21,928 nucleotides of DNA. It comes from Candidatus Eiseniibacteriota bacterium (GTDB lineage: Bacteria; Joyebacterota; Joyebacteria; Joyebacterales; Joyebacteraceae). The DNA lies in contig JBDRFG010000116.1 of NCBI GenBank assembly GCA_043819135.1, positions 1-21,928 of the forward strand, given 5' to 3'. Position 1 is the first letter of the stretch; every line of letters starts with the position of its first letter. This document shows positions 1 to 21,928 of this stretch, piece by piece. The notes under the pieces are model-generated. The model saw nothing but the letters and a program-made list of their open reading frames with translations, did not search any database and was not told the origin of the DNA. The translations under genes were made by a program, and so were the position numbers.

Positions 1-1
1 C

Positions 2-6188: not shown

Positions 6189-6388
6189 CCGCCGCACCCC
6201 GGCGAGTAGGTGAGGACGTAGCCGCCAGCCCGAGCCCGGACGTTCACCCACATCGACAGAGCCCTCGAGTAGTAGACGAATCCGACCATCCCCTGGGACT
6301 CGTGTTCGGCGTGGCGTTCTGCCCGGATCTGTCTGAGACGGGCCTGTGCCTGCGGTGCGGTGAGGGTTTCTGGCCGCGGGGTAGCCAT
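6179..6388 (-). CDS. Hypothetical protein ending in CGGCG
   Basis: AGGA RBS directly after the upstream stop; fits the operon packing. Confidence 0.65.
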   Translation of the reverse strand: MATPRPETLTAPQAQARLRQIRAERHAEHESQGMVGFVYYSRALSMWVNVRARAGGYVLTYSPGCGGCG

Positions 6389-6392
6389 CGTC

Positions 6393-7997
6393 CTACTTTG
6401 CGAGAAGCTTGACGGCGATCGAAAGAGCAGTCAGCCAGACGAGCCCGGAACCCTTCTTCGCGGGGGCCTTCGCCTTCTTGGCGTCGGCCTCCTTCTTGGC
6501 GTCGGCCCTCTTCTTGGCGTCGGCCCTCCGCTTCGCCCAGGCGTCGGCGTCGGCCTTCTTCTTCTCCTCAATCGTTTTGGAGGAGCCGGCCTTCTTGGCG
6601 TCGGCCTCCTTCTTCGCGGGCTTCTTCTTCGCGGGCTTCTTCTTCGCCTTGGCGTCGGAGGTGGAAAGCCTGCCGGACGACGTGCGGGGCCTACTCGGGA
6701 CGGTGTCAGCGATTCTCCGGAGGGATTCTTTGATTGTATCAACGCGACCCGTCCTCACCCCGTACGCAACAGCCATCTTGAGGCAAAGGTGGAGTGCCTC
6801 CTGGGGTGTGTGCTGCATCCTGCTGAGCACGTTCCATCCCCCGTGGGTCGGACTCGGTACCTGCCGAGCCACCTTCTTTGCAGGAGAGTCGGTCGTCCTC
6901 GTCTTGAATCCGGCCACAATCTGACCCCCCGACCCCAGCCAATCCACGACTCCGTAGTCAAATGAAACTGTCGAACTGACGAGCTTGCGGGTGATCGGCG
7001 CCCACGAGAGGAACCCGGACATGTGCTCCTCTGGCAGTGGAAGGACGATCTGAGCCATCTCGGCCACGAAGTACTCAGGGTCGTTCCCGACGGCATGGGC
7101 AATTTTCTCTGCCCGCTTCAACGAAGGGGCGTGTACGTCGCGGCGGCTGATGTGCGTGTAGCCAGGGATGATTCTGCTGTGTTTCTGTCCTTTTCTTGAC
7201 GACAGCCCCAGCACATGCGCCTCGGCTTGAACCGTGCAGAAGAACAGCCAGAGCAGTCTCCGGAAGGCGGCTTGCTTTCCCCCCCACGCGAAGAGAACCG
7301 TTGCATATGGAAGTAGGCTTTGACTTCCCATCCATTCGGGGCTGCACATCGTGTCACTCGACATCAACGCACTGAACAACGCCAACGACGTAGCCGGAGT
7401 GGCGGGGATGAGCGGAGCGATGACGACCTGTGACCTGTGACGGCTTATCAACTGCGCCGTCAAACCTGTGACGCCGCCAACATCCTCCATCTTGTTGAGC
7501 GCCGTCTGCCAGACAGGCTTGACCTCCCCGAGCGCAACGTTGGAAACGAGATCCATGGAGATTCCGGATGTTGCCTTCACCATCTGGGGGTTCGAGGTTC
7601 TTGCTAGGATTGCTGCGATGTTTCGATTCCCGAGGGGGTGCTCGCGAAGTACGGTTGTCGAGATTCCTTCAACGTTCGCCGGAGGAGGAGTGCCGTCTGC
7701 CCCGAAGAGGTCACTGAGGATCTTACACACGATGGGCGCTGCAAAGGATATGGCCACCCCCGCTGGCCCCGAGAATGCCCCCGCCGCTCCGAGGAGTTGG
7801 GTCGCCATGCCCACTGCACCATTCACAACTTCTCCCATATCGTCGCCGGCGAACGAAGAAGCCCTCTCAGCCAGCCCCTTCACGGCGGACCAATCCCCTC
7901 CGTACTTCGCGCCGAGCTTCGAAGAGATAGCGATGTTGACCCCAGGAATATCCAAATTCCCGCCAGAGCTTACCTCCAGTGGTCCGATGCTTCCCAT
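6393..7997 (-). CDS. Large putative virion membrane protein with Lys/Ala repeat stalk and C-terminal TM
   Basis: 534-aa ORF in the operon; ADAKK repeats followed by GLVWLTALSIAVKLL. Confidence 0.75.
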   Translation of the reverse strand: MGSIGPLEVSSGGNLDIPGVNIAISSKLGAKYGGDWSAVKGLAERASSFAGDDMGEVVNGAVGMATQLLGAAGAFSGPAGVAISFAAPIVCKILSDLFGADGTPPPANVEGISTTVLREHPLGNRNIAAILARTSNPQMVKATSGISMDLVSNVALGEVKPVWQTALNKMEDVGGVTGLTAQLISRHRSQVVIAPLIPATPATSLALFSALMSSDTMCSPEWMGSQSLLPYATVLFAWGGKQAAFRRLLWLFFCTVQAEAHVLGLSSRKGQKHSRIIPGYTHISRRDVHAPSLKRAEKIAHAVGNDPEYFVAEMAQIVLPLPEEHMSGFLSWAPITRKLVSSTVSFDYGVVDWLGSGGQIVAGFKTRTTDSPAKKVARQVPSPTHGGWNVLSRMQHTPQEALHLCLKMAVAYGVRTGRVDTIKESLRRIADTVPSRPRTSSGRLSTSDAKAKKKPAKKKPAKKEADAKKAGSSKTIEEKKKADADAWAKRRADAKKRADAKKEADAKKAKAPAKKGSGLVWLTALSIAVKLLAK

Positions 7998-8009
7998 GGT
8001 CAGGTCATC

Positions 8010-9506
8010 CTACAGGAGCAGCAATGCGGCTGCGACGACGGCTGCGATGGAGAGGTACGTGCCTTTCCCGGCAGCCTCCTCCTTCGCCTTGGCGTCGGCC
8101 TTCTTCTTCTCCTTCTTCTTCTTCTCCTTCTTCTCCTTCTTCTCCTTCTTCTTCTTCTTCTTCTTCGCGGGCTTCTCGGCCTTGGGCAGAAGCTTCGAGA
8201 CCTCGGAAGCGGTGCACCCGGCGGCAATCAGAACTCTCTTGGCCACCATTATCGTTGCCGCGCTCGGGGTTCCTTTCCCGAGGAGATCAGCGACTTTCTG
8301 CTGGAGAAGGGGATTCGAGGCCAGCTTGCAGGAGGTGCTCGCTGCGAGCGTCGTGGCCGTCTTTTCGAGCTTCGCGATTTCGGCCCTCGCCTTGTCTTCA
8401 AGCGGCTTCACCGCGATGTCGAGTTCCTTCTTGAGGTCCTCGACGTTGATCTTGAAGCCGAGGCCGGTCGCACTCGCGGTCACGGGAGCGCCGGCGGCCT
8501 TCTTCTCGACGAGGGACTGGGGGGTTTTCCTCGCGGCCCGGTTCCGGATCTTCGCCATCGCGCAGTCGGCCATCGTGGCGTTGTGCCGCTCGGTCGACTC
8601 GCGCTGCTTGAGCTTGGCGACGGTCTCACGCATCACGGCGGCTTCCTGGGGGCGCCCGGCCCGCATGGCCTTCTTGATGTCTTCCGTCAGGCCCGCCCGC
8701 CACCGCTGCGCGACCACGATGCGTTCCTTCGCGGTTGCGGCGGCCCACGCGACCTTCTGCTTCGCGCGGACGACCTTGGTCGCCAGGTTGGCCTTCCCGA
8801 TGAACTTGAACCCAGCCGCAGCAACCTGCGCGGTCGCTCCGTCGCCGCTGGCCGGCGCCGCGGCGTAGGTCTTGCCGAGGATGACCTGCATCTTGTTGTT
8901 GCGGGCCATCTGGGTCGCCAAGACCTGGAGCTTCGCGTAGCGGACGGCGCGGCCGGCCGCAGCCGCTCGAGCAGCGTCGAGACGGAGGATCGCCGAGGAG
9001 TTCTTCGTCGGGGACCCTGACAGCTTCGCAATCTGCGTGTCGAGTTGCTTGACCCGGGCGAGGTAGCTTTGCTTCTGCGTCGCTGCCTTCTTCGCCACGG
9101 TCACGCGCTGCGTCAGCTTCACCTCGACGCGCTTGACCGTGGCCTGTGCGGCGTCGACGGACGGCGACGCCACGCCGAAGGGACCATCGGTCACGCCGAG
9201 CGCGCCATCGAAGGCCGACAGGCTCGACGCCCCGCTGATTCCGGCGTCTTCGTAGCGGTCGGCCCCAAACAGCGTCGCCTCGATCTGACCGAGGTCGCCG
9301 AAGAACGTCACCCCCTCGAGGATCTGAATCAGATCCCCGAGGAACTGCCCGGACGAATCCTGGGCCGAACGCTCCGTGACATCAGAGGGGACGCCGGCCG
9401 ACAGGAACGTTCCGGAGTTGCCCCCGTGTCGTCGTGCCAGCACATCCTCTGGAATGCCCCTGCGAGGATCTATGGTCGTCCCAAGGCTTTGGACGACCGT
9501 GCTCAC
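8010..9506 (-). CDS. Putative virion protein: acidic Gly-rich N-terminus, basic coiled coil, poly-K/E tract, C-terminal TM
   Basis: 498-aa ORF with strong GC3 bias, GTGA-coupled to the upstream gene; ends YLSIAAVVAAALLLL. Confidence 0.8.
   Translation of the reverse strand: MSTVVQSLGTTIDPRRGIPEDVLARRHGGNSGTFLSAGVPSDVTERSAQDSSGQFLGDLIQILEGVTFFGDLGQIEATLFGADRYEDAGISGASSLSAFDGALGVTDGPFGVASPSVDAAQATVKRVEVKLTQRVTVAKKAATQKQSYLARVKQLDTQIAKLSGSPTKNSSAILRLDAARAAAAGRAVRYAKLQVLATQMARNNKMQVILGKTYAAAPASGDGATAQVAAAGFKFIGKANLATKVVRAKQKVAWAAATAKERIVVAQRWRAGLTEDIKKAMRAGRPQEAAVMRETVAKLKQRESTERHNATMADCAMAKIRNRAARKTPQSLVEKKAAGAPVTASATGLGFKINVEDLKKELDIAVKPLEDKARAEIAKLEKTATTLAASTSCKLASNPLLQQKVADLLGKGTPSAATIMVAKRVLIAAGCTASEVSKLLPKAEKPAKKKKKKKEKKEKKEKKKKEKKKADAKAKEEAAGKGTYLSIAAVVAAALLLL
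8099..8166. repeat. 68-nt pure pyrimidine (TTC/CTC) trinucleotide tract encoding poly-Lys/Glu
   Basis: Directly visible in the sequence. Confidence 0.9.
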
Positions 9507-10099
9507 GTGCGGGACTCACCCGAATGGAGGACGAGGTCGCCGGTGAAGACCACGCCGACGACCTTCTGGTTCACCGAAGCGGTCCAGGCCCCGGGGCCGG
9601 TCGCCGTCGTGTCGACGGCGAAGGTCCCCTTGATGGCGTGGCCGCCGGAGAAGCGGTAGATGCCGGTATCGAACACCATGTCTGGCGCCGGCCCGAGCGT
9701 CGCGAGAAGCTCAGCCATCGAGATCAGGGAGGTGAACACGTCGAAGTTCCTCCCCTCCTCTCGCGCCTTGAACGTGATGCGTGCCCAGTTGTCCGGAATC
9801 TGGTCGGCTGCCGCTTCCTGGATGTAGCCTCGGATGCGGCGCAGAACGAAGTCCATCCCCTTGGGGATGGCGACGTCCACCGCTTGCAGCGAGACGACAC
9901 CGGCCGTGCTGATCGTCGCCTCCCACCGCAGATGGTCGACTCGGACCACCTCCGGCGGGAGATCGAGGACGTCGCGAATGTACCGTTTTGCTTCCCCGTC
10001 GGATCCACGCAGACGCTTTTCGAGCGCAGCGAGGATCTCGATCTCGGTCATTCCCTCGGTTCGAAGACCGAGTTGTCGGGCGGCGTCCTTGAGAAGCAC
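9503..10099 (-). CDS. Putative second single jelly-roll capsid protein
   Basis: All-beta pattern (IPKGMDFVLRRIRG, ITFKAREEGRNFDVF, IYRFSGGHAIKGTF, VGVVFTG); lies immediately downstream of the putative MCP. Confidence 0.55.
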   Translation of the reverse strand: MLLKDAARQLGLRTEGMTEIEILAALEKRLRGSDGEAKRYIRDVLDLPPEVVRVDHLRWEATISTAGVVSLQAVDVAIPKGMDFVLRRIRGYIQEAAADQIPDNWARITFKAREEGRNFDVFTSLISMAELLATLGPAPDMVFDTGIYRFSGGHAIKGTFAVDTTATGPGAWTASVNQKVVGVVFTGDLVLHSGESRT

Positions 10100-10118
10100 G
10101 GGCAGAGCCCTTCTGCGC

Positions 10119-10787
10119 CTAGCCCTTGGTGGCGGCGCTGCGGATCAGACCGTGGAGGTACAGGCGGACCATCACGTCGCCGGCCAGGGTCGGCGTCTGG
10201 CCGCCTGCCGCGGCCGAGAGACCGGCCGCGACCACGTCGGTCGAGGCCCAGGTCCGCTTGTGGTACGTGATCACGCCGTCGCAGTCGCTGCGGGGCGTGA
10301 TGAGCTGCTCGCGGGCCAGCTTGGCGGCGGCGGCGGTGGCCGGCGTGCCGATCGTCACGATCCCGGCGTCCGTCTCGACGGTGTTCCCGGCGAGGCCGTA
10401 GCCCGAGGGGAACTTGACGAGCGGGCCTTCCGCCACGTCCTTGCGGTTGAGCTGGAACATGAGGTACCCGTTCTCGGCGACCTTCTTGATGTCGGCCGGG
10501 GGGGGGACCGTGTTCCCGAGCGCCGTCGGGATGTGGACGCCGATGCGCTCGAGCCGCATCTCTTCGCCCTCGGGGATCTTCCGCGGGGTGGCGAAGTTCG
10601 TGTCCAGGATCTCCTTGTTGGTGAGGTCACGGAAGAAGTTCAACGTGTGGTTCAGCGCGACGGCGCCGTTGACGAGCATCGTGGTGTCCCACTTGTCGTC
10701 CTCGCGCCACTCGCTGATGTTGATCTTCTGCTGGGTGACGGAGTCCCAGAACATTCCAGGTTCGCCCTTGATCGCTACGAGTGCCAT
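10119..10787 (-). CDS. Putative major capsid protein, single jelly-roll type
   Basis: Strong RBS (AAGGAG) and extreme codon bias. Beta-rich pattern WDT...LNFF...DTNF...IP...RLERIGV...VRLYLHGL, which I recall from tailless-virus capsid proteins (not verified by search). Confidence 0.6.
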   Translation of the reverse strand: MALVAIKGEPGMFWDSVTQQKINISEWREDDKWDTTMLVNGAVALNHTLNFFRDLTNKEILDTNFATPRKIPEGEEMRLERIGVHIPTALGNTVPPPADIKKVAENGYLMFQLNRKDVAEGPLVKFPSGYGLAGNTVETDAGIVTIGTPATAAAAKLAREQLITPRSDCDGVITYHKRTWASTDVVAAGLSAAAGGQTPTLAGDVMVRLYLHGLIRSAATKG

Positions 10788-10809: not shown

Positions 10810-10860
10810 GGGGTAGGCCCGGAGGGCTACGAAAAGCGGGGTGAGCCCGGAGGGCTACGA
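10810..10860. repeat. Two 23-bp direct repeats (28-bp period) in the MCP leader
   Basis: GGGGTAGGCCCGGAGGGCTACGA (10810-10832) and GGGGTGAGCCCGGAGGGCTACGA (10838-10860). Confidence 0.85.
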
Positions 10861-11583
10861 CAGCCAGGTTCCGATCTGGCCCGGGAAGGACGGTTCGACC
10901 TCGACCTCGACGCCCTCGAACCCCGCCATGTAGGAGGGAACGGGCTCCACGTCGACGTCGCCCATGGATCCGCTGTGCGAGGGCAGGCCGAGGAGTTCAT
11001 CCTCCTCGGGGAGATCGTCGTAGCTCCCGTAGCCCCCGTCGGAGAAGCCGAGGGTGATGGGGATGTCGGCGTACCCTGCGACTGCGGTCGCCAGGGCGAA
11101 GCCGCCGAGGCCGCCGATGATCCCGACGGCGAGCTGCGGGCTCACCCGGAAGGCGAGGCCGCCGCCGACGATGGCGAGGCCGAGCGCGATGGCCGCCTTG
11201 TAGATCGGCTTCTCGATCTTGATCATGCCGAAGAGCTTCGGGAGCACGAAGGCCCCGAGCATGATCGATCCGGCGGCACCGCCGGCGACCATCAGGCTCT
11301 CCTTGAACTGCTCGGCCGTGGGGACGAGCGCTCCGATGCCGCCATCGAAGTCATCGAGGGGCGGAAGGTCGACGGTACGGGACATGTTGGAACCTCCGAG
11401 GTGGGTGCTGCCGACGATGATCGGGATCTTCGCCCGACCGCATAGGGACTTGAAACCCGGACCGCTTCCGGGCGGCCCGTACTTGGCGCAGACGCAGCGG
11501 TCGTTCTTCTTCCCGCCGCGCCGGACGACGAGGCAGCTCCGCGATCCGCTGGTGCCGCCTTCGAGTGTCTGGATCTTGGCCAT
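10855..11583 (-). CDS. Putative major membrane protein (3 TM, acidic tail); alternative internal start at 11385
   Basis: ATG 11583 has a GGAG RBS and in-frame ATG 11385 has a GGAGG RBS. Three Gly-rich hydrophobic segments; sits directly upstream of the putative MCP. Confidence 0.75.
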   Translation of the reverse strand: MAKIQTLEGGTSGSRSCLVVRRGGKKNDRCVCAKYGPPGSGPGFKSLCGRAKIPIIVGSTHLGGSNMSRTVDLPPLDDFDGGIGALVPTAEQFKESLMVAGGAAGSIMLGAFVLPKLFGMIKIEKPIYKAAIALGLAIVGGGLAFRVSPQLAVGIIGGLGGFALATAVAGYADIPITLGFSDGGYGSYDDLPEEDELLGLPSHSGSMGDVDVEPVPSYMAGFEGVEVEVEPSFPGQIGTWLS

Positions 11584-11594
11584 CGTGCTCCGCG

Positions 11595-11984
11595 CTACGC
11601 GGCCTTCTTGATGAGACCCTTGCGGCGCTTCGTCGCCATCATCTTCTTCGTGGCCGCGGCGCGCTTCGCCTTGGTCCACGGGGTCTTCTTCCTGACCTTG
11701 ACGCCGGCCTTCGCCTTCTCGGCGGCGCTCATGTAGCCGGGGCCGGGCTTGAACTTGAAGCAGCGGATCTTGCCCTTCGGCCCGGGCTCGAGCTTGACGC
11801 AGGTCATCACGTCCCCGCGAAGCATCCCCGAAACCGCGCTGCCGAGCCCTCCGGGCGTGTACGTTCCGAGACCGGTCTTTGCCATGGTACCTCCTGAGAA
11901 AGCACGAGTTGTGCGGCCGGACGTCGGCTTCGCCTTGAAGCTCACGATCGTTCCGTCGCTTTTGGTAAACCTGACGTTCGGCAC
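11595..11984 (-). CDS. Small very basic protein, possibly DNA-condensing; alternative internal start at 11885
   Basis: Lys/Ala-rich tail. GTG 11984 lies 6 nt after a -10 box; ATG 11885 has AGGAGG. Confidence 0.75.
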   Translation of the reverse strand: MPNVRFTKSDGTIVSFKAKPTSGRTTRAFSGGTMAKTGLGTYTPGGLGSAVSGMLRGDVMTCVKLEPGPKGKIRCFKFKPGPGYMSAAEKAKAGVKVRKKTPWTKAKRAAATKKMMATKRRKGLIKKAA

Positions 11985-12050: not shown

Positions 12051-12320
12051 ATGCCGACGCCGGCCTCCAAGAGTTCCGCTACCGCAATCGCCGCAGGCAA
12101 GGTCCACGAGGGTTTCAAGTACGGGATCGGCTTTTTCGCAGCGAGCGTGATCATCGACGCCATCGCGAAAATCTGGAACAGCACCCCGTCGAACAGGACG
12201 CCCAACCCGCCGTCGGGGCTCTCCGAGTTCGCCCTGAATGCACGTCGCAGATCCACGACGAAGGTCGCGTTCACCACGAAGGACGGCAGGAGGGTGTCGT
12301 TCCGAACACGGGCGATGTGA
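12051..12320 (+). CDS. Small membrane protein with basic C-terminal VxFxxxDGxxVSF motif
   Basis: One TM (YGIGFFAASVIIDAIA); leaderless-type start. Confidence 0.7.
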   Translation: MPTPASKSSATAIAAGKVHEGFKYGIGFFAASVIIDAIAKIWNSTPSNRTPNPPSGLSEFALNARRRSTTKVAFTTKDGRRVSFRTRAM

Positions 12321-12406
12321 CGACGATTATAGACTTGCACGTAGGCTGAATGGTAAAACGCAAGTATGCTGACGAATCCCGAGATCAAGGGAGAAGGGAC
12401 CAGAAC

Positions 12407-13708
12407 ATGAGCCGATTTGCACACTCCCCGCTCGACATCGCGCTGGCGGGCAAGGACAAGACGATGGAATTCATGCAGTCGGCCTACGACATCGAGGTTG
12501 TGGGTGGCCGGGGGGCCGGAACCGTGTTGGCCCAGAGCGGCTTCGCCAGCTACGAATCCAGCACCTTCTTCACGACGCCGCGGGACAACCCGCCCGCCCC
12601 CCCCCCTCCGGCGGCAACGGCCCCGAAGACCCTCGCCGCCATCGGAGCGACTCGCTTCGGGGATGGGCTGGAGTACCTCCGGCTCCGGTACATGCAGGCC
12701 AAGCGGAACGCCGTCGAGTGGCCCGAGAACCAAAACGCATGGCTCAGCGTCGCGGCGAGGGTGGCGAACCTCCACGACATGCTGTTCCGCGGTCTGGAGA
12801 AGTACGCCGGCGCGAAGACGTCAACGATGGCGACGAAAACCGTCGACGTCCTGAAGAGTTCCATGGGGCCGATCGAACACGACGTGCGCGACATCAAGAT
12901 GGGCGGGTGGGAGCCCTCCGCGAGGCTCACCCCGGTTCTGGCGGCCAAGGAAAAGCGCGAAGGGATCTTCCCGCTCTCGACGGCCCCTCCCGGGGGATGG
13001 AAGCTCGCCAACAACAAGAAGAGCATCTGGCACGAGTTCTCTCTGAGGCTGCAGGAGGTCCTGAACGACCTCGGGTACAACGCCGGGGGGGAGGACGGCT
13101 GGTACGGAAAGACGAGCCACACCGCGATGGTCCGTGCTCGCGCCGCCAACGCGGCGCTGATCGAGAAGTACCTCGGACCGAACGGCATCCCGAACAACCT
13201 CCCCGAGTTGATCAAGGCGTTGCTCGGTCAGGGCGACGTCCCCGCCGAGCCCGAGAAGCCCGCCCCCGGCGAGCAGACGGCCGTCGCGGAAGCGAAGAAG
13301 AAGAGTGACGCCGCTGTGGAGAAGCGCCCGGCCGACCGGAAGAAGCTCGCCAAGCCGAAGAAGAAGAAGGAGAAGAAGCCGAAGGAGAAGAAGCCGAAGG
13401 AGGAGGAGCCGAAGGAGGAGGAGGAGGAGGAGGAGAAGGAGGAGAAGAAGGTCGAGAAGGCCGGGTTCAGCCTCGGGACGTGGTCGATCGTCGGCGGGGT
13501 CTTCCTCTTCATCGTCGCGCTCCTCGCGCGCCCGAAGAGGAGCGACGCCGTCGCGGACTTCCGACGCGCGCTCAAGGGCGCGGGACGAGATGGGATGTCG
13601 AGGCGATGCCTGCAATTCCGCCGGAACAAGGACGGGAAGAAGGTCTGCGCCAGGTACACGAAGCCGCGCCGTCAGAACCTCCGCGGGTCGTGGGCGCTGA
13701 CCGACTGA
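12407..13708 (+). CDS. Membrane-anchored protein with peptidoglycan-binding domain (PG_binding_1-like) and K/E stalk
   Basis: LQEVLNDLGYNAGGEDGWYGKTSHTA matches LQ..L..LGY..G..DG.[FY]G..T..A. A K/E tract precedes TM WSIVGGVFLFIVALLA. Purine-rich RBS. Confidence 0.8.
   Translation: MSRFAHSPLDIALAGKDKTMEFMQSAYDIEVVGGRGAGTVLAQSGFASYESSTFFTTPRDNPPAPPPPAATAPKTLAAIGATRFGDGLEYLRLRYMQAKRNAVEWPENQNAWLSVAARVANLHDMLFRGLEKYAGAKTSTMATKTVDVLKSSMGPIEHDVRDIKMGGWEPSARLTPVLAAKEKREGIFPLSTAPPGGWKLANNKKSIWHEFSLRLQEVLNDLGYNAGGEDGWYGKTSHTAMVRARAANAALIEKYLGPNGIPNNLPELIKALLGQGDVPAEPEKPAPGEQTAVAEAKKKSDAAVEKRPADRKKLAKPKKKKEKKPKEKKPKEEEPKEEEEEEEKEEKKVEKAGFSLGTWSIVGGVFLFIVALLARPKRSDAVADFRRALKGAGRDGMSRRCLQFRRNKDGKKVCARYTKPRRQNLRGSWALTD
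13357..13451. repeat. AAG/GAG trinucleotide low-complexity tract encoding K/E/P
   Basis: Directly visible; 13411-13451 is purine-only. Confidence 0.9.
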
Positions 13709-13751
13709 CCGCTCCGCGGCTGCGCGCCGTGAGCGCGTCCAGGAGTCACCC

Positions 13752-14927
13752 ATGCGATCTCTAGGTATCTTGTACGGGGCAGGTTTGGTGCCGGGCGTGA
13801 CGTACCCGGACTCGTTCCCGACGACGACGGAAACGATGGTGTTGGCTAGGGTCGCGGGGCTGCCGACCCCGCAAATCCGGGAGGCGTTCCAGAAGTTTCT
13901 CGACACCCCGGGCATCAGTCCTGCCGACGCCAAGGCGTTTCTGAAGCGGTGGGGGGACGCCGCGTGGAACAGTATTCAGTCGTCGGACAAAGCCTACAGG
14001 GGGGAGTGGAATCGTTTTCTTCGCGCTGCGCTCTCAACTCCGGCCTCAGTCACGATGACGGGCATGGAAGAATTCTTCGACCGTTGGCGGTTGCAGAACG
14101 TCGAGTGGCGCAAGGAAAACTGGGACAGGCGTATCCCCTCCAGGGACCAACTCCGCTCTTATCTCGACACGTTGTCGCAGACGCAGCCGATCCCGCGAAA
14201 GGCCGTGATCGAAGTTCTCCGTCAGGCTACGGCGTACGCCGACCTCGCGCACAACATCTTCCGGATCTCTTCGACCGACTACGCCGCGACCATCCGAGAC
14301 GTCATTCGGAAGCGCCTCAACGACAACACCTTCGGAAACAACCTCGCGATGGGCGTGGAGGAGATGATAAAGTTTCTCGGGCGGGCTCTGGCGTTCGTCG
14401 CCAAGAATATCCTCGCCCCTGTCGCCAAGGGCTTGTGGGCGAGCGTTCCGTGGTGGCTTTGGGCACTCCTCGTCCTCGGCGGGGGGGGATATGTGGCCGT
14501 GGCAACGGCCCCTGGGCGGGCCGTCGTCCGCCGGGTCCGCGAGCGGCGGGTCCGGGGGGGGACCGCCGGGGCGTTCCTCGCGGCCCCGCTGTCGTCGTCT
14601 GCTCTGGCCGGGTACACTCCCGCCGGACTGCGGGGGGCGATGATGCGCTGCGTCCAGTACTCGACGACTCCTCGGGGCGTGAAGCGGTGCGTGACGATGG
14701 AGATCGGCCCAGGTGAAGCAGACCCCGAGGCCCGCGCTGATGCCGGGATCACGAAGCCTTACCGCTACAAGACCGAGAAGGCCCAGACGCGAGGACGCCC
14801 CCATCGTGCCGTCGGGATCAAGGCGTACCCGAGGGTCTACACCGGGAAGACCGGGCGGAAGGTGCGGACCGGCGCGAACGTGCGCGTCCCGCCGCCCGCC
14901 GCCGCCAAGCAGAGGAAAGCCGCGTGA
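13752..14927 (+). CDS. Putative virion membrane protein: helical N-domain, TM, basic tail
   Basis: AGGAG RBS; TM VPWWLWALLVLGGGGYVAVA; C-x12-C motif; Arg/Lys-rich tail. Confidence 0.8.
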   Translation: MRSLGILYGAGLVPGVTYPDSFPTTTETMVLARVAGLPTPQIREAFQKFLDTPGISPADAKAFLKRWGDAAWNSIQSSDKAYRGEWNRFLRAALSTPASVTMTGMEEFFDRWRLQNVEWRKENWDRRIPSRDQLRSYLDTLSQTQPIPRKAVIEVLRQATAYADLAHNIFRISSTDYAATIRDVIRKRLNDNTFGNNLAMGVEEMIKFLGRALAFVAKNILAPVAKGLWASVPWWLWALLVLGGGGYVAVATAPGRAVVRRVRERRVRGGTAGAFLAAPLSSSALAGYTPAGLRGAMMRCVQYSTTPRGVKRCVTMEIGPGEADPEARADAGITKPYRYKTEKAQTRGRPHRAVGIKAYPRVYTGKTGRKVRTGANVRVPPPAAAKQRKAA

Positions 14928-15193
14928 GTTTCCCCCTCCGTTCCCGGGGCCAACGCGGGCTCGCCCTGGCCGCGCTCGGCAAGTTCCCGACGATCCGCCT
15001 CGTGAATTCCATGCTCAACGTTCCCCCGTGCGAGGTTGTGCTTGAGGTCAACGAAACGCGCTACCGCTATGACTTCGGGTACGACTGCGACGTTGCGTGG
15101 TCCGTTGCGGCCGGCGCGGACAGCCGAAACCCTCGCGTTCAGGTCGCTGCTTTGAACCGTGCCCGGAAGTACCTCGTGAAGCGGCGAAGCTAG
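14924..15193 (+). CDS. Hypothetical protein (89 aa)
   Basis: GAGGA RBS and GTGA coupling. Confidence 0.65.
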   Translation: MSFPLRSRGQRGLALAALGKFPTIRLVNSMLNVPPCEVVLEVNETRYRYDFGYDCDVAWSVAAGADSRNPRVQVAALNRARKYLVKRRS

Positions 15194-15213
15194 ACGACCT
15201 CACCGGGCGCGGG

Positions 15214-15247
15214 TAGGATGACACCGATGCTCGGTGAACTCGCACTC
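15214..15247 (+). repeat. Promoter + N-terminal tag module, copy 1
   Basis: TAGGATGACACCGATGCTCGGTGAACTCGCACTC; 32/34 identical to 21665-21698. Confidence 0.85.
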
Positions 15248-16042
15248 GGAAATGGCCTCGGGCTCGGTCCTCTGCTGCGCTGGCCAGGTGGGAAGGCGCG
15301 ATTCGCTGGCCGCGTCGTTCCGCGCATCCCGAAGCACCGAGTGTACTGCGAGCCGTTCTTCGGGGGCGGCGCGCTGTTCTTCGCCAAGCCGGAGGCGAAG
15401 GTGTCGATCCTCGGCGACGTCACGAAGAAGACGATCGCCTTTCACGACCAGGTGAGGCGCGGGGCGTTGCGGCGCTGCCGGGAGGGCGTCACGGTTGGGC
15501 CTGCGGCGTTCAAGAAGGGGGAGGACGGGAAGGCGAAGTCGGCCTGCGACGTGCTCGCGTGGACGATGTCCTCGTACCACGGGTCCATCACCCCGTCCGG
15601 CCGGTCGTCGAAGCACGGTGGACGTCAGAAGATGCGCCACCTGAAGGAGTACGAGGGGATGCTCCGGCGCGCGTTCCTCACGCTGGGCGACTTCGCCCGG
15701 ACGGTCTCGAAGGCGGATCGCCGCGGCGGGAGGGAAGCCTTCTACTTTCTTGACCCGCCATGGCCCGGTCTCCAGGGCTACTCGAAGAAGTACACAAAGA
15801 TGGGCGGGGCAGACGAGAAGGGGGCGACTCCGGCGCGCGTCCGGAAGGTCATGGACGACGTGAAGGGGAAGGTCTGGGTGGTCTACAACGACCATCCGGA
15901 GGTCCGGGAGGCGTTCTGCGAGGGGAAGAAGGGGAAGTGGAAGTGCTACGGCCTGAAGCAGAACGTGCAGCATGGGACGGGCGGGATGCAGAAGAAACCG
16001 TGGATTCTCGCCACGAACTACAACCTGAAAGGAAAACGCTGA
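15227..16042 (+). CDS. DNA N6-adenine methyltransferase, Dam/D12 class
   Basis: LLRWPGGK, YCEPFFGGGALFF (SAM-binding), FYFLDPPW (catalytic) and VYND...VRE.F. Confidence 0.9.
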   Translation: MLGELALGNGLGLGPLLRWPGGKARFAGRVVPRIPKHRVYCEPFFGGGALFFAKPEAKVSILGDVTKKTIAFHDQVRRGALRRCREGVTVGPAAFKKGEDGKAKSACDVLAWTMSSYHGSITPSGRSSKHGGRQKMRHLKEYEGMLRRAFLTLGDFARTVSKADRRGGREAFYFLDPPWPGLQGYSKKYTKMGGADEKGATPARVRKVMDDVKGKVWVVYNDHPEVREAFCEGKKGKWKCYGLKQNVQHGTGGMQKKPWILATNYNLKGKR

Positions 16043-16254
16043 TGCTCGGTGAACTTGCTCTCCAGAGTCTTTCGGGACGGGACGACTTCGACACCTGGAA
16101 GCGGAAGGTGTCCGCCCTCGTCTCCAAGAAGTACGGGGTCGAGGCCGACGATCTCCCCGACATCGACTACTACTCGCACTATGAAGATGGCATGTCCCCT
16201 GCTCAGGTTGTGACGGGGCCTCTCCGTCGGATGCTGCGTGAGGAAGGGTACTAG
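16042..16254 (+). CDS. Small acidic phage protein (70 aa) with MLGELAL tag
   Basis: AAGGA RBS and TGATG coupling; FDTW...DLPDIDY...EDGMSP. Confidence 0.75.
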   Translation: MLGELALQSLSGRDDFDTWKRKVSALVSKKYGVEADDLPDIDYYSHYEDGMSPAQVVTGPLRRMLREEGY

Positions 16255-16257
16255 GCC

Positions 16258-17337
16258 ATGTTCTCCGAGCGTGCCATGAGCAGCTTCGGCCGCGGGCTGC
16301 ACGGCGACCTCGACCCCGAGTACGTTCGCGCCTGCGTCGAGTGGACAGAGAAGATCCGCCGCTTCCCCCCGAAGTACGCGAAGAAGAAGAAGTGCTACAC
16401 GCGCTTCGACCGCGCCGACGAGGAAGCCCGCAAGCAGTCCGAGGCGAATCGAGAGACGACGGCGACCGTGACCGTCAACGGCAGGACGAAGACCGAGTGC
16501 AAGCGGGGCTCGTGCCACCGGCTCGGCGGGCTCGATGGCGTCCCCGTGTACCGCAACCCATGGGCGATCGGGCTCGCGGTCGTCGGGGCGGTCGCGTACG
16601 CCAACAGCCGACGGAGCAAGGGCAAGGGGCTGCTGGACCTCGGGGTGTTCAAGGCTGGCGTCGAGCCGGTCATCCGAGAGATCGCCGCTGCCGTGCGTCG
16701 GGTCGCGGTCGAGTTCGGGTTCCCGCCGGTCCCGACAGATGCCTACGTCACGGCGCACCTGATCCTGTCGAGCGGGTGGTTCGACTCGACGCTGGACAAG
16801 CCGCCCCACTACAACTTCTCCGGGGTGAAGGCGGGGAGTTCCTGGACTGGCCCCGTCGTCTTGCTGCCGACGGTCGAGTACTACACCGATGCCGAGATCG
16901 CCCGGGCGAAGGCGAAGCCGAGCGGGACGCGGGGCTCGTTCAAAGAGATGGCACCGAAGGCAGGTTCGACGGTGTCAGGGAAGAAGCGGGTCCAGATCTA
17001 CGACGACTTCAGGTCGTTCGGATCCCCGGACGCTGCGCTGCGCGACTATTTCACCCGACTGACGTCACAGTCGAAGTACAGCGAGAGCGGCGAGAAGCTC
17101 CGGACGGCGGCGCACGACTACATGGCCCAACTCGGCAAGGACGGCTGGTACACGGCTGACACCGACGTCACTCAGCGGGCATGGCGCTCGATCGTGGACG
17201 GCAGCCGCCTCCGCGGCATCCTCGGGCCTGAAGATGAACGTGGGAAGTCCACACCGGATCCTGTCAAGGCAGGCGTCGGGGTCGGAGTCGTCGGGACGGT
17301 CGCGGCGATCGTGCTCGCGCTCGCGCTCGGAGATTGA
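16258..17337 (+). CDS. GH73 glucosaminidase/FlgJ-like domain protein with two TM segments; catalytic Glu apparently substituted
   Basis: AHLILSSGW, YNFSGVKAGSSWTG, TVEY, FRSFGSPDAALRDY and GWYTAD. Confidence 0.85.
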   Translation: MFSERAMSSFGRGLHGDLDPEYVRACVEWTEKIRRFPPKYAKKKKCYTRFDRADEEARKQSEANRETTATVTVNGRTKTECKRGSCHRLGGLDGVPVYRNPWAIGLAVVGAVAYANSRRSKGKGLLDLGVFKAGVEPVIREIAAAVRRVAVEFGFPPVPTDAYVTAHLILSSGWFDSTLDKPPHYNFSGVKAGSSWTGPVVLLPTVEYYTDAEIARAKAKPSGTRGSFKEMAPKAGSTVSGKKRVQIYDDFRSFGSPDAALRDYFTRLTSQSKYSESGEKLRTAAHDYMAQLGKDGWYTADTDVTQRAWRSIVDGSRLRGILGPEDERGKSTPDPVKAGVGVGVVGTVAAIVLALALGD

Positions 17338-17342
17338 TCCTG

Positions 17343-18128
17343 ATGCTCGCCGAGGCAGCCCTCCAGTCCATCTCCAGACGCGGCACCGTGGTAGTCGGAG
17401 CGAGACTGCTGCACGGGTCTGCGGGGACCGAAAAGCGGCCGTGGTACAGGAACCCATGGGCCTGGGCGGGAGCGGCGCTCGTCGCCCTCGGGGCCGTCGG
17501 GGGCGGCACCGTTGCCGTCGTGGGCTTTCCCAAGGTCTTCAGCCTCGTGACCGGGGCCTACCGCTCGGCCGAGCAGTGGGCGACCGACCGTGGCCAGCAG
17601 ATCCGATCCGCATTTCATGTGAAACCCGATTCGCTGAAGCCTGCAGGAAGCATCAGGTCCTCGACGATGTCGCTCGACGAGTGGAACCGGAAGAAGCTGG
17701 AGATCCTGGCCCCGCAGTACCGCGGGCGGTTCGAGAGCTTCTTCCGTGCGGCGCAGGCCGCCGCACGCAGCCACGGGTCCGCTCTGCTGATCTGGGATTC
17801 GACCAGGACGCTCGAGCGGCAGCTTGACCTCTACCGAAGGGGGCGCGTCGACGACCAGACGAAGGTCACGGATACGATGGCTTCGCTGCACCAGTTTGGG
17901 ATGGCGATTGACGTGCTGATCGCTGGCCCGAACAACGCGCCGTCGTGGTCGTCCCCCGGGTGGTACACCACCGAGGTCCTTCCGCTGGCCGCACAGCACG
18001 GACTCGAGTCGCTGTACCTGGCGCGCGGGAAGGACAAGCCGCACATCCAGGTCCCCGAGGCCGAGTGGCCGGCCGTCGTCGCGTCGGCACGGGAACAGAT
18101 CAAGGACGACTTCCCAGGAGTCGCGTGA
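17343..18128 (+). CDS. M15-family peptidoglycan endopeptidase (L-Ala-D-Glu type) with N-terminal TM
   Basis: RTLERQLDLYRRGR, SLHQFGMAIDV (SxHxxGxAxD) and DKPHIQ. Confidence 0.88.
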   Translation: MLAEAALQSISRRGTVVVGARLLHGSAGTEKRPWYRNPWAWAGAALVALGAVGGGTVAVVGFPKVFSLVTGAYRSAEQWATDRGQQIRSAFHVKPDSLKPAGSIRSSTMSLDEWNRKKLEILAPQYRGRFESFFRAAQAAARSHGSALLIWDSTRTLERQLDLYRRGRVDDQTKVTDTMASLHQFGMAIDVLIAGPNNAPSWSSPGWYTTEVLPLAAQHGLESLYLARGKDKPHIQVPEAEWPAVVASAREQIKDDFPGVA

Positions 18129-18145
18129 ACCCACAGAAGGACACC

Positions 18146-18787
18146 ATGTCAACGAAGACTCCATGGATCATTGCCGCCGCCGCCGTTGTCACGGGTCTCC
18201 TCCTGAATTCCAGCGCGTCAGCGAGCACCAAGTCGCCCCCGAAGAAGCCCGCGCCAAAGAAGCCGCCCCCCGCCCCCGCCGCGCCATCCTTGGCTCCGTT
18301 CACGCCCACCAGCGCAAGCTATAGCTTCGCGTGCCAAGCCGCGCGCATCGCCTTCGAGTCGATCCGTGCAGCAACTCAGGCAGCCAACCCCAGGAAGCTG
18401 CGCCCGCTGTCCTCGTCGACCATCGACAAGCTGCGCCCGCTGTTCCCCAAGCTCGACCTGGGCCGCGTCCGGGTTGCCGAGAACGCCACAATCCCGGCGC
18501 GGGAGATCTCCAAGCTCAACATCCCTGGAGCTGCCAGCGACATCGACGCCATGACCTTCGGGTACGACATCTACATGAAGGGAAAGGCGAGCACAAAGCT
18601 ACTCGTCCACGAGTGCGTTCATGTTGATCAGGTCCGTCGCTACGGTGGGCGCGACAAGTTTGCCTGCGCCTACGGGAACGGGGTGGTCCGCGGAGGTATG
18701 ACCTACCGTGGCAACCCGCTGGAGGTCGAAGCGTACGGGTTCGCGGACAAGGCGATGACCTACCTCTGCGGCAAGGGGCTCGTATAA
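18146..18787 (+). CDS. HExxH metallopeptidase-like protein (DUF4157-like) with N-terminal TM and Pro/Lys linker
   Basis: AAGGA RBS; LDLGRVRV, AMTFGYDIY, LLVHECVHVDQ and NPLEVEAY. Confidence 0.82.
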   Translation: MSTKTPWIIAAAAVVTGLLLNSSASASTKSPPKKPAPKKPPPAPAAPSLAPFTPTSASYSFACQAARIAFESIRAATQAANPRKLRPLSSSTIDKLRPLFPKLDLGRVRVAENATIPAREISKLNIPGAASDIDAMTFGYDIYMKGKASTKLLVHECVHVDQVRRYGGRDKFACAYGNGVVRGGMTYRGNPLEVEAYGFADKAMTYLCGKGLV

Positions 18788-18796
18788 CCGAGCGGA

Positions 18797-18824
18797 CGAT
18801 GTGATAAGGTCGGTTAGCACCACG
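18797..18824 (+). repeat. dif/Xer-like 28-bp site 1
   Basis: CGATGTGATAA-GGTCGG-TTAGCACCACG. Confidence 0.6.
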
Positions 18825-18848
18825 GGGATAACCACGAAAGGAACGACG

Positions 18849-19433
18849 ATGGGACTCGCGGAACGCGCTCTCGGACTTCCGACGTACACCGGACAGGTCG
18901 AGGCCACGCTCGGGTTTGAGAAGCGCGATCCAGCCGGACGGTGGGCCAGGGCGCTGGGCGGGACCACGCCCTCGCACTTCGGAAGCTTGTGGATCACGAC
19001 CATCGTCACCAGCCAACTTGACGTCCACGCCGGTGGTGGAATTCTTCTGGAACACCGAGGCGTCAACGTCCCGATCTACTGCTTTAACGACTCGTTTCGC
19101 TGTTCCGGCAAGAAGCTGGCGGTGGTGTTCGACTGCGAGCAGCCCGGCAACATGGACGACGAGGAGTTCCAGGAGATGGCCGATCGCGCGAAGAGCGCCG
19201 GGTTCGACGCGCGGAAGGTGACGGTCACCCGAGGTGGACGCCTACCAGGCGGCGCTCGGGCCACGGGCGACGAGGTGGTGATCAGGGCTCTGCTGCCCAG
19301 CCCGCTCAGGGCGACCGACATCGACCCTCCGATCCACAAGGCGAGCACCGGAGCGGGAGCGTCGATCGGGGACAGGAACGACGACTCCGACGACGGACCG
19401 ATCTGGATGGACGTGCGCTGCCATGTCGTGTGA
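18849..19433 (+). CDS. Hypothetical cassette protein with LAERALG tag
   Basis: AAAGGA RBS; lies between sites 1 and 2. Confidence 0.75.
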   Translation: MGLAERALGLPTYTGQVEATLGFEKRDPAGRWARALGGTTPSHFGSLWITTIVTSQLDVHAGGGILLEHRGVNVPIYCFNDSFRCSGKKLAVVFDCEQPGNMDDEEFQEMADRAKSAGFDARKVTVTRGGRLPGGARATGDEVVIRALLPSPLRATDIDPPIHKASTGAGASIGDRNDDSDDGPIWMDVRCHVV

Positions 19434-19440
19434 CCGTCGA

Positions 19441-19468
19441 GAGGTCGATAACCCTGATTAGGACCATG
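19441..19468 (+). repeat. dif/Xer-like 28-bp site 2
   Basis: GAGGTCGATAA-CCCTGA-TTAGGACCATG. Confidence 0.65.
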
Positions 19469-19503
19469 GTCGAAATGGCATTAGAACCACGAGGAGGAAC
19501 CCC

Positions 19504-19929
19504 ATGTGGTGGATAATCGGAATCGTAGTCGCGGGCGGTGCGTGGGCGCTGACGCGGAAGACGGACGAGGACGACGAAGCGCCGAAGCGCATCGCCCCCA
19601 AGGGCAAGCGTCCGAAGTACGAGCCCCCCCCCGATCCGAGTCGACGCCCGGAGATGATGGTTCACATCCAGGACGCGCTTCGTCTCGAGGCCGGAACGAA
19701 GGTCTATGTCGGCGGTCGGTATGCCGCAAGGGGCGATGGGGAAGCAGGACGGACGTGGCGAATCGTCCAGGGCAAGTCTGCCATGTGGGTGGACGGAAGA
19801 CTCCCGGCTGGAACCCGAGACGGGGCGACCATTCGTGTCACCGGGACGATCAAGGTCAGGAACCCGGGGACGCGCTCGGAGACACGGTACATCCTGGCAT
19901 CGGAGGTCGCGCGGAGCGTCGGGAAGTAG
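19504..19929 (+). CDS. Membrane-anchored protein with OB-fold-like beta domain (paralog A)
   Basis: GAGGAGG RBS, N-terminal TM, GTKVYVGGRY...IRVTGTIK. Confidence 0.8.
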   Translation: MWWIIGIVVAGGAWALTRKTDEDDEAPKRIAPKGKRPKYEPPPDPSRRPEMMVHIQDALRLEAGTKVYVGGRYAARGDGEAGRTWRIVQGKSAMWVDGRLPAGTRDGATIRVTGTIKVRNPGTRSETRYILASEVARSVGK

Positions 19930-19933
19930 CCGG

Positions 19934-19961
19934 CCGTGCGATAACGTGGATTAGGACCACC
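19934..19961 (+). repeat. dif/Xer-like 28-bp site 3
   Basis: CCGTGCGATAA-CGTGGA-TTAGGACCACC. Confidence 0.65.
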
Positions 19962-19985
19962 GGATAACCACGAAAGGAACACAGC

Positions 19986-20426
19986 GTGAAGTGGATAATC
20001 GGACTTGTGGTCGCGGCGGCCGGCGCGTGGGCGCTGAAGTCGCGCAGCGACCGCGCGGAGGCATCCCCGAAGCGCCCGACCGGCCCCAATGGAAAGAAGC
20101 CGAAACAGGCTCCTTCCATCAGCGTCCACGCCGCGCGGCAGCTTCCTCACGGGACGAAGGTCACCGTCTTCGGACAGTACGCGGCCGAGGGAGGGCAGTG
20201 TCGGGGGGGGAAACCGACGCCCGAGGCATGGATGCTCGTCGGGCCTGCCCCCTCCTTGGGAGGAGCCCTCCCCGTCTGCATCTGGGTCGTCGGGATCTCC
20301 TCTGACAAGTTCCGCCACGGTGTCGGCATCAGGATCGTCGGGACGATCAAGTCCGTCAACGTCGGCACTCGCTCGGAACTGAAGGTCCTCCACGCCGTCG
20401 GATTCGAGCTCTTCAGGTCGAAGTAG
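19986..20426 (+). CDS. Membrane-anchored protein with OB-fold-like beta domain (paralog B)
   Basis: AAAGGA RBS and GTG start; aligns by eye with 19504..19929 (WIIG, AWAL, GTKV, YAA.G, GTIK, GTRSE). Confidence 0.8.
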   Translation: MKWIIGLVVAAAGAWALKSRSDRAEASPKRPTGPNGKKPKQAPSISVHAARQLPHGTKVTVFGQYAAEGGQCRGGKPTPEAWMLVGPAPSLGGALPVCIWVVGISSDKFRHGVGIRIVGTIKSVNVGTRSELKVLHAVGFELFRSK

Positions 20427-20430
20427 CCGA

Positions 20431-20458
20431 CGGTGCGCTAATGTCCATTAGGACCACT
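20431..20458 (+). repeat. dif/Xer-like 28-bp site 4
   Basis: CGGTGCGCTAA-TGTCCA-TTAGGACCACT. Confidence 0.65.
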
Positions 20459-21055
20459 TCGCTCGCCGAGGCTGCCCTTGGGGCGCGTGGAACGATGCGT
20501 GCCGAGGAGAGACGCTTCCTGCAGCAGGCTCAAAATGAACGCACCCCAACCGAGGCGATGGACGGTCAGGGAATCGTCGAAGCCGATGAGGATGAGTGGC
20601 TTATGGTCGGAGAGCGAATTCCGCGCGTCTTGTTCGGCGCACTGCCGAACAGCCTCCGAACCCACCACCTGGCGCTGCTCGGTCTGACGCCCTTCCCGCA
20701 CCCGCATGTATTCGGACTCCACGTCACTAGCGATCCGGAATACTGGATATACAGGTTGAGCGAGGACTACGACTACACCCTCGACGATGCGAGGGTCATC
20801 GAGATCGAGGTGTTGCCCGGCGACCGCCTGGCCTACGACGTGCAGTACATGACCGACCCTGACTCCGGCGAAAAGGCCAGCAGCAGCGTCCTCCTAACCA
20901 CGCGGCGAGTTCTGAGGCTAGGGACGGACTTCTTCGTGAGCGACGATGAGGCGATGTACGTCAGGATGGCCCGGGAGCGCGCGCAGGAGCCCTCCGAGGA
21001 GGACTCGCCGTACGCCATCAGCCAACCTCCCAGTTGCTCACGCCGTCACAGGTGA
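20441..21055 (+). CDS. Hypothetical acidic protein with LAEAALG tag; start uncertain
   Basis: 204-aa ORF with protein-like composition; first ATG lies inside site 4; 38-bp convergent overlap with the next gene. Confidence 0.65.
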   Translation: MSIRTTSLAEAALGARGTMRAEERRFLQQAQNERTPTEAMDGQGIVEADEDEWLMVGERIPRVLFGALPNSLRTHHLALLGLTPFPHPHVFGLHVTSDPEYWIYRLSEDYDYTLDDARVIEIEVLPGDRLAYDVQYMTDPDSGEKASSSVLLTTRRVLRLGTDFFVSDDEAMYVRMARERAQEPSEEDSPYAISQPPSCSRRHR

Positions 21056-21620
21056 GCTTGACCATGGCCGCGTTGGTCGAGATCACGAGGTTTGGCGCTC
21101 CATCGATGGTATCCCCGCCGTCGGGCGTGATCGTGATGTTGTTTACGGCAGAGTTTAGACCGGAGTCCTTGACCCAAAAGACCTTCCCCACTCCGGTCGC
21201 CGCGGCCGACGGAAGCGTGAGCCCGCTCGCGCCTGCCGCGGTCCTGGACACCGAGAGGTGAACGTCCGAGGCTGGGACCACGTAGACGGCATCGGAGACA
21301 TCCACCCAGGAGACCCGGCCCCCGACGCCACCGCCCCCGGCCAGGTTTTGCATGAACGGCAGCCCGGCCCCCGACGCCACCGCCCTTCCCATTGAGTGAA
21401 AACGGATGCACAGGAAGATCGCCGTGTCCGTGGCACCTCCCGTGTTTTGGACCGTGATATTCGTGGCGTCTGCGGTCGTGACCTCAAGGGTTGTTGGTGA
21501 CAGAGGGAGCACGAGATCCGGGGTGACCCCCTGGCCGCTCGATCCCTTGAGCCCATGGGCGTGGGTGGTCGTCGAGGTTGCAGCGACGGTTGCCGAAACG
21601 GTGCTGATGAGGACGGCCAC
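21018..21620 (-). CDS. Putative spike/fibre (receptor-binding-type) virion protein
   Basis: C-terminal LTLPSAA..G..FWVKD....NNITI....DTIDG....LTCDGVSNW module typical of phage fibre proteins; poly-Gly linker. Confidence 0.75.
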   Translation of the reverse strand: MAVLISTVSATVAATSTTTHAHGLKGSSGQGVTPDLVLPLSPTTLEVTTADATNITVQNTGGATDTAIFLCIRFHSMGRAVASGAGLPFMQNLAGGGGVGGRVSWVDVSDAVYVVPASDVHLSVSRTAAGASGLTLPSAAATGVGKVFWVKDSGLNSAVNNITITPDGGDTIDGAPNLVISTNAAMVKLTCDGVSNWEVG

Positions 21621-21677
21621 GGGCGCATACTACCCCGACCGTGGACGCGGCGCGAGTGGTCGGATAGGATGACACCC
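21621..21677. promoter_or_regulatory. Divergent leaderless-type promoters
   Basis: Minus: TAGTAT(21632-21627)-6 nt-GTG 21620. Plus: TAGGAT(21665-21670)-7 nt-ATG 21678. Confidence 0.6.
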
Positions 21678-21698
21678 ATGCTCGCTGAACTCGCACTC
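21665..21698 (+). repeat. Promoter + N-terminal tag module, copy 2
   Basis: TAGGATGACACCCATGCTCGCTGAACTCGCACTC. Confidence 0.85.
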
Positions 21699-21928
21699 AG
21701 ATCGCTCGCCGCCGAGTGGAACGCCAACGTCCCGAAGAAGTGGCGCGCGAAGTTCTGGGGCCTGCCCGACAGCGCGGTGTGGCTCGGCATCGGCAAGGAC
21801 GGGAAAGCCTACGCCCGCGTCGGGAAGGACATCGTCCGCGCTCCTCACGGGTCCGCGTGGCGCTGGGAAGGATTCGATCGCGAGAGCACCTGGACCGAGT
21901 TGGAGCGCCAGGGCGTGCTCCCGCTGGA
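21678..21928 (+). CDS. Hypothetical protein with MLAELAL tag, truncated by the window edge
   Basis: Open to the end: MLAELALRSLAAEWNANVPKKWRAKFWGLPDSAVWLGIGKDG... Confidence 0.7.
   Translation, partial: MLAELALRSLAAEWNANVPKKWRAKFWGLPDSAVWLGIGKDGKAYARVGKDIVRAPHGSAWRWEGFDRESTWTELERQGVLPL

Follow-up and report, generated by a model that had tools for sequence, protein, structure and literature searches.

Several unrelated proteins encoded on the 21,928-nucleotide contig JBDRFG010000116.1 of a Candidatus Eiseniibacteriota assembly (GCA_043819135.1) begin with one and the same peptide of about nine residues, [LF]-[GAS]-E-x-A-[LM]-x-S-[LFI], hereafter the tag. The contig was analysed at its full length (the window below); it spans contig C116 of a 2.69 Mb bin completely and apparently stems from an uncultured, tailless bacterial virus. 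The tag is real, conserved at the level of the peptide, and modular, while its function we infer: on balance we lean towards a docking label that recruits cargo to the assembling particle, working like the capsid-targeting sequence (CTS) of phage T4. An earlier note made from the letters alone had proposed such capsid targeting; peptide-level selection, retention of the tag in orthologs, its modularity, and a jelly-roll context argue for this part of the proposal, but the portable promoter which the note had added to it did not hold.

All peptides listed in that note are encoded where it had placed them, on the plus strand. Copy 1 (MLGELALGNGL, 15227..15259) opens a D12/Dam-class adenine DNA methylase (15227..16042; 271 aa, pI 10.2, PF02086 E 2.5e-13, with an alternative in-frame ATG at 15218), whose stop codon is overlapped by the start of a 70-aa protein (16042..16254) made of the tag (residues 1-12) and a DUF5419-like domain (phrog_519 E 1.5e-7; DUF5419 on homologs). 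There follow a glucosaminidase with the variant MFSERAMSSF (16258..17337; PF01832 E 6.6e-9), an M15-like peptidase beginning MLAEAALQSI (17343..18128; phrog_465 E 1.8e-8, the M15 Pfam match being below cut-off), and two soluble orphan proteins for which profile and homolog searches found no homologs, one starting MGLAERALG between two dif-like sites (18849..19433) and one with the core SLAEAALG at 20462-20482 (20441..21055). In the latter protein, inspection by eye gave the impression of a pattern that may be ADP-ribosyltransferase-like. The last tagged open reading frame (ORF), MLAELALRSL, is truncated by the contig end (21678..21928; GC3 0.92 after the tag). An eighth copy, ten residues past a GTG start, lies on another contig of the bin, C76. 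Gene calls were made with a simple in-house codon-score caller, and start positions may be off; a sequence like a ribosome-binding site stands at the usual place for the starts 16042, 17343, and 18849. Translation of the tag appears well supported for six copies and doubtful for that at 20441.

The tag is concentrated at protein starts. L[AG]ExAL has 34 six-frame matches in the bin, six of which fall on the window, each at or near an ORF start, and the comparison of N-terminal with internal occurrences which the earlier note had proposed came out in favour of the tag, as the other contigs of the bin gave 18 internal matches and no N-terminal one among 3,925 ORFs. Within the first 18 residues, [LF][GAS]ExA[LM] was found in 7 of the 39 called window proteins against a maximum of 2 in 20,000 shuffles, a circular test, since these very genes had served to define the motif; a look-elsewhere control, taking the best shared four-position motif, gave at most 4 proteins in 300 shuffles versus 6 in the real set. 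A profile of the tag matched at 7 of the window's 1,014 N-terminal positions versus 2 of its 5,551 internal ones. Furthermore, between 14924 and the contig end the plus strand has 11 ORFs, of which seven are tagged, one has a near-tag, and three begin with a hydrophobic anchor. A search for the DNA pattern of the tag in IMG/VR yielded 11 matches; no window protein has a homolog in the loci concerned, and we read the matches as chance.

The synonymous differences between copies, from which the earlier note had argued for selection on the peptide, are real, and the argument is supported by the codon positions. Across the seven canonical copies, identity was 1.00/0.90/0.48 at codon positions 1, 2, and 3, of which the first two are high by construction and the free third is the informative one; pairwise comparisons gave 47 synonymous versus 10 non-synonymous differences. 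We consider it very improbable that the peptide is a functionless by-product of a copied translation-start unit by which newly captured genes are expressed. Such copying is visible in a 34-bp unit spanning a likely ribosome-binding site, the ATG, and tag codons, of which the copies at 15214..15247 and 21665..21698 (both plus strand) agree at 32 of 34 positions. In the same direction point, for four copies, a low GC3 among the opening codons (only 4-6 of 10) and an excess of CTC, which makes up 12 of the 14 Leu codons of the tag versus a usage of 0.51, so that shared DNA ancestry contributes to the likeness of the copies. However, the third positions vary freely while the residues are fixed, the tag lies anywhere from 1 to 10 residues from the start, a methylase clade has retained it at 56-57% identity, and the upstream DNA is unrelated in most pairs, just 5-17 of the 30 preceding bases being alike between copies.

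The earlier note had described the pair at 15214 and 21665 as a portable promoter-plus-tag unit with a common -10 box. The figure of 32 matches in 34 bp is correct as it was given, but the promoter part found no support: identity drops to 3-5 of 10 outside the unit, upstream similarity is lacking, no sigma-70-like promoter was detected in 14800-21928, and the alleged -10 letters can equally be taken for a ribosome-binding site, AGGA, 8 nt ahead of the ATG. Likely, the pair is a copied start unit, and a leaderless -10 box at these sites is possible but unsupported. The tag may spread by copying of such a 30-35 bp start unit, with selection on the peptide then holding it in place.

The tag is absent from distant or foreign homologs of three cargos but kept by the close orthologs of the methylase, and the M15 family is patchy. 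Among 11 non-self methylase homologs, the three closest (56-57% identity) are tagged, beginning MLGELALGGLG, MLGELALASLG, and MLGEAALGSLAG, and form one clade with the window protein (support 97/99); seven (34-44%) are untagged, and one is a fragment without N-terminus. One untagged homolog (P0130) has a hydrophobic anchor at its start instead (Kyte-Doolittle, KD, 2.06), and the motif is absent from all 80 phage Dam-like loci. The eight M15 homologs (43-55%) comprise one starting MSERALGTF, five full-length untagged proteins, and two likely fragments; the tagged one is nested among untagged ones, the tree forcing two changes and no bootstrap tree giving a single one. For the 16042 protein, none of 123 homologs is tagged, and nearly all align from query residue 8-16 on. 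As far as these alignments go, the tag is long kept in the methylase family, patchy in M15, and an add-on in the family of the 16042 protein; orthologs thus display its gain as well as its loss. The methylase family (15227-16042; P0122-P0132) is very basic and has FxDPPW where DPPY is the usual methylase motif, and in G004 and G005 its relatives have accessory genes as neighbours and lie at a distance of 11-20 kb from the capsid gene.

Over 12 copies the consensus reads [LFM]-[GAS]-E-[LAR]-A-[LM]-[GQ]-S-[LFI], with Glu3 and Ala5 invariant in all of them. A helical wheel places positions 1, 2, 5, 6, and 9 on one face and Glu opposite (hydrophobic moments 0.17-0.46, directions 9-78 degrees), and the tag, which precedes the folded domain, is predicted to form a short one-faced helix. 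The small residues on its hydrophobic face and the acidic residue opposite suggest packing against a groove of a protein rather than a bilayer. Related viruses, described below, contain a single comparable helix, placed close to the N-terminus of proteins encoded downstream of the capsid genes and mostly on one large membrane-anchored protein; 20 distinct sequences conform to GL[AGS][SE]Y[LF][AGDE][EA]F[AS]xG. A profile built from these 20 helices alone ranked the eight tagged genes above 62 untagged ones (p 7e-5). It is plausible and unproven that the tag descends from this conserved N-terminal helix of a structural protein. The core YL[AG]EF is found family-wide on the large membrane-anchored protein (11788-13779 in L001, 11813-15172 in L026, and in similar loci).

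The structural module of the window offers three candidate readers of the tag, all encoded on the minus strand. The predicted major capsid protein (10119..10787; 132 hits including itself) folds as a single jelly roll (pLDDT 84.5) and matched SPV1 best (Z 8.0, rmsd 4.3, 143 aligned; Foldseek E 1.2e-3), followed by P23-77 VP17 (7.1), HHIV-2 (6.9), and HCIV-1 (6.7), an assignment at fold level only, made from a predicted structure, with Z of 7-8 in the range usual for chance best hits. Further candidates are a second predicted jelly roll with an N-terminal helical extension (9503..10099; pLDDT 85.1; nucleoplasmin Z 8.0, SPV1 Z 7.1), a conserved membrane protein with three predicted helices encoded upstream of the capsid gene (10855..11583; 36 homologs in related loci), and a 425-aa core protein encoded on C76. 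Co-folding an alignment of the tag, 32 residues long, with the capsid protein and residues 28-198 of the second jelly roll scored 0.00 and, having no controls, counts neither for nor against docking. The module is rich in predicted membrane anchors, which suggests an internal lipid membrane.

The capsid profile gathered 92 loci; complete genomes of 80-102 kb, bearing direct terminal repeats, are available for four relatives. C76 encodes an integrase, the core protein, and a transglutaminase-like protease (PF01841) in the gene order of the relatives, and shares with the window a repeated site that occurs on no other contig; likely, it belongs to the same virus, though the two contigs are not joined. 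The A32 (PF04665) and HerA (PF01935) ATPase families were absent from all four complete relatives while controls matched, though a divergent enzyme is possible, and since the genome of the window virus is incomplete, the absence rests on these relatives; a Walker-A scan of eight relatives gave unclassified matches. Sphaerolipovirus-type viruses have a packaging ATPase of the FtsK/HerA type. The family of 80-100 kb viruses apparently has no prior description: a literature search of titles and abstract starts, with subscription papers outside its coverage, returned nothing on either the family or the tag. An Atlas search with the C76 core protein matched only unnamed viral clusters, and the single capsid sequence had no match in IMG/VR. 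In the available part of PMC5894146, Odin viruses lacking an ATPase measure 7-11 kb, and a transglutaminase is never mentioned. As peptidoglycan hydrolases are encoded, the host should be a bacterium; the bin is not necessarily that host, and the capsid profile matched none of 30 other genomes of its phylum. One sequencing run contained scattered pieces at low depth, and no RNA data set was among those listed.

We picture the particle as jelly-roll capsomers on an inner membrane, assembled without a packaging motor. The tag helix would bind a structural protein at the assembly site, and because no packaging motor was detected, cargo would be captured in co-assembly as shell and membrane close, as the relatives suggest. 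Soluble cargo would need the tag, but neighbours that start with an anchor would not, namely an untagged protein with an eCIS-core-like domain (18146..18787, plus strand; KD 2.16; PF13699 E 4e-4, below cut-off) and two untagged paralogs (19504-19929 and 19986-20426, together 19504..20426, plus strand; KD 1.83 and 2.09; paralogy E 1e-16). The glucosaminidase, with a predicted C-terminal anchor, and the M15-like peptidase, with a predicted membrane helix at residues 44-62, have catalytic domains predicted to face outward and may act at entry, while soluble cargo would be delivered or held. Lytic enzymes are membrane-associated in the virions of PRD1 and PM2, according to the available part of PMC5380687. 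In a membrane-lined particle, a soluble enzyme docked on the capsid might lie outside the DNA compartment; access of the methylase to DNA would then depend on the reader, because a capsid-docked protein could sit outside the inner membrane.

Besides the CTC excess and the fold scores of the capsid protein given above, several observations weigh against such docking. First, most of the 24 proteins called on C76 are soluble, yet only 1 of them bears the tag, so the rule that soluble means tagged is valid in the window cluster only. Second, eight long relatives gave 1, 1, 0, 0, 0, 0, 0, and 1 N-terminal profile hits, and the shared tag is consequently specific to this lineage. Third, the likeness to the family helix is moderate, as, measured against 1,144 background N-termini, five of the eight tags rank within the top 1-3% and three fall outside. 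Fourth, the start of the 20441 gene is doubtful because its first ATG sits inside a repeated dif-like site, which also encodes the residues ahead of SLAEAALG, and starting at the second ATG, 20495, would bypass the tag. Furthermore, the five full-length untagged M15 homologs manage without it, the M15 enzyme of another system is interpreted by its authors as an endolysin (in the available part of PMC10589892), and the capsid protein itself is untagged, with the motif in none of the 120 capsid-protein matches listed, the window's own included.

The absence of the tag from the capsid protein is also what one would expect if the tag docked outside the particle, on a hub of the virus or the host such as a protease adaptor, a chaperone, or a replication site, and controlled where accessory proteins are placed in the infected cell or how they are turned over. 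We regard this as unlikely, but two tagged window genes lie in dif-like cassettes, the C76 copy has small non-structural genes around it and is remote from the capsid operon, and the cargo is mixed. These features are balanced by the two tagged enzymes with predicted membrane anchors and outward-facing catalytic domains, by the resemblance of the tag to a helix of a structural protein, and by the failure of all 3,925 ORFs on the other contigs to start with the motif, though the bin may not be the host.

Somewhat less likely still, and compatible with targeting as in T4, the motif could be the recognition site of the transglutaminase-like cysteine protease of the virus, the propeptide being removed at maturation. 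PF01841 proteases occur on C76 and in all four complete relatives, and L-x-E of the tag equals the cleavage motif L/I-X-E of T4 gp21 given in the available part of PMC9026906. In addition, [GS][LFM]G within the first 45 residues is enriched in structural-module proteins (30/152 versus 36/765), a count confounded by glycine-rich membrane helices. Yet the protease is family-wide and the shared tag is not, a cut after Glu would remove just four residues in most copies, and the helical periodicity seems to suit docking better than an extended substrate.

Compared with known systems, the tag shares with the T4 CTS, a sequence of 10 residues in the available parts of PMC9026906 and PMC3012670, the placement of about ten N-terminal residues on unrelated proteins of one virus (IPI, IPII, and IPIII in T4) and the L-x-E pattern. 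The CTS is described as graftable in what we could consult; similarly, the window tag is modular in being absent from cargo homologs elsewhere (0/123, 0/80, the seven distant methylases, and 7/8 M15 proteins including the two likely fragments). T4, by the same partial sources, is tailed and has a scaffold core and the serine protease gp21, whereas in the window virus jelly-roll folds go together with predicted membrane proteins and a transglutaminase-like protease; two of its cargos carry predicted membrane anchors, and no sequence homology with the T4 peptides was shown. An HK97-fold head with a scaffold core was not seen, the candidate capsid proteins being predicted jelly-roll beta-sandwiches, and since the head type differs, the tag falls outside the T4 and P1 systems. 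The gp21-type prohead protease family PF03420 matched none of five records, with control genomes likewise unmatched.

The DarB signal of P1 occupies the N-terminal 30 residues and packages an anti-restriction protein, but the Dar N-termini have no consensus and need more than nine residues (available part of PMC9024508), whereas one consensus is found on seven or eight window proteins. The nearest precedent on a jelly roll is vaccinia A17, a short N-terminal peptide of which docks on the D13 lattice during assembly (PMC13672803, as far as accessible); there, one dedicated membrane protein meets a double jelly roll of a eukaryotic virus, in contrast to the many cargos of the window, five of seven being soluble. 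Single-jelly-roll capsid proteins connect the window virus with Portogloboviridae (SPV1) and, by fold match only, with P23-77, HHIV-2, and HCIV-1. SPV1 has an inner membrane, subcapsomer proteins, and a nucleoprotein core, but it is archaeal with 20 kb, unlike the relatives, which measure 80-102 kb and encode an integrase, a transglutaminase-like protease, and peptidoglycan hydrolases, and its profile in PMC8459092 mentions no shared cargo tag. The tag is also reminiscent of the encapsulation peptides of bacterial microcompartments, short terminal peptides that, in the portion of the literature available to us, send unrelated enzymes into a protein shell; these are cellular organelles rather than viruses, and the comparison is by description, not sequence. 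Encapsulation peptides are longer than the tag.

A bolder picture, in our view possible though doubtful, is a large, tailless and motorless single-jelly-roll virus with plug-in cargo, in which a nine-residue helix of a structural membrane protein is pasted onto captured genes, some of them in dif-like cassettes, and soluble enzymes including the methylase become part of the particle, to be delivered along with the genome. If docking is true, the tag would illustrate how tailless jelly-roll particles gain accessory proteins without portal or motor; the capsid-targeting peptides in the accessible parts of the cited literature belong to tailed phages (T4 and P1) only. Virion cargo could then be predicted from genomes by a sequence rule, the assembly of an 80-100 kb virus family could be probed through a nine-residue handle, and a virion-borne methylase would be a new anti-restriction route, provided that it reaches the DNA.

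The cassettes are delimited by four 28-bp dif-like sites in direct orientation between single genes (18797, 19441, 19934, and 20431; 18797..20458, plus strand; 4 matches versus 0.01 expected). Their 11-6-11 layout with a TAA-N6-TTAG core resembles that of Xer dif sites, about a dozen more lie on C76 (L226 1457-11789), and C76 encodes a tyrosine recombinase; alternatively, the repeated site could be a repressor operator. Neither the dif-like site nor P0136 had a match in IMG/VR. Three near-tags are uncertain members of the set: LALAALG, in which Glu is missing, at residue 13 of the 89-aa ORF 14924-15193 (14960..14980, plus strand; profile score 11.3), LSEFAL at an internal position behind a hydrophobic stretch (12219..12236, plus strand; 9.8), and LAERAS at residue 42 of a 534-aa structural-module protein (7857..7874, minus strand; 11.9).

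Directly before a hydrophobic stretch, the two unrelated hydrolases (16258-17337 and 17343-18128) both carry YRNPWA, in whose position one relative has WYENPW; this stretch may be another portable module. Long tracts rich in Lys mark several proteins of the structural module (6393-9506, 11595-11984, and 12350-14927) as candidates for DNA condensation, and a Cys/basic segment is common to the 11598 and 13752 proteins. A 69-aa protein with a terminal Cys pair (6179-6388), which relatives conserve in their structural module (9 hits), is a possible adaptor. C76 further carries two capsid-like remnants or paralogs, one matching the first 24 capsid residues at 67% (L226 1619-1900) and one matching the capsid family weakly (L226 2455-3033; E 5e-5); among the relatives, L004 has two tandem capsid paralogs (9264-10681) and L019 three tandem paralogous genes immediately upstream of its capsid gene (8143-9867). 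Finally, in a side observation on window 1-259, contig C51 (L227) overlaps the window start by 141 identical bases and contributes an amidase, an HU-like protein, and tandem glycosyltransferases.

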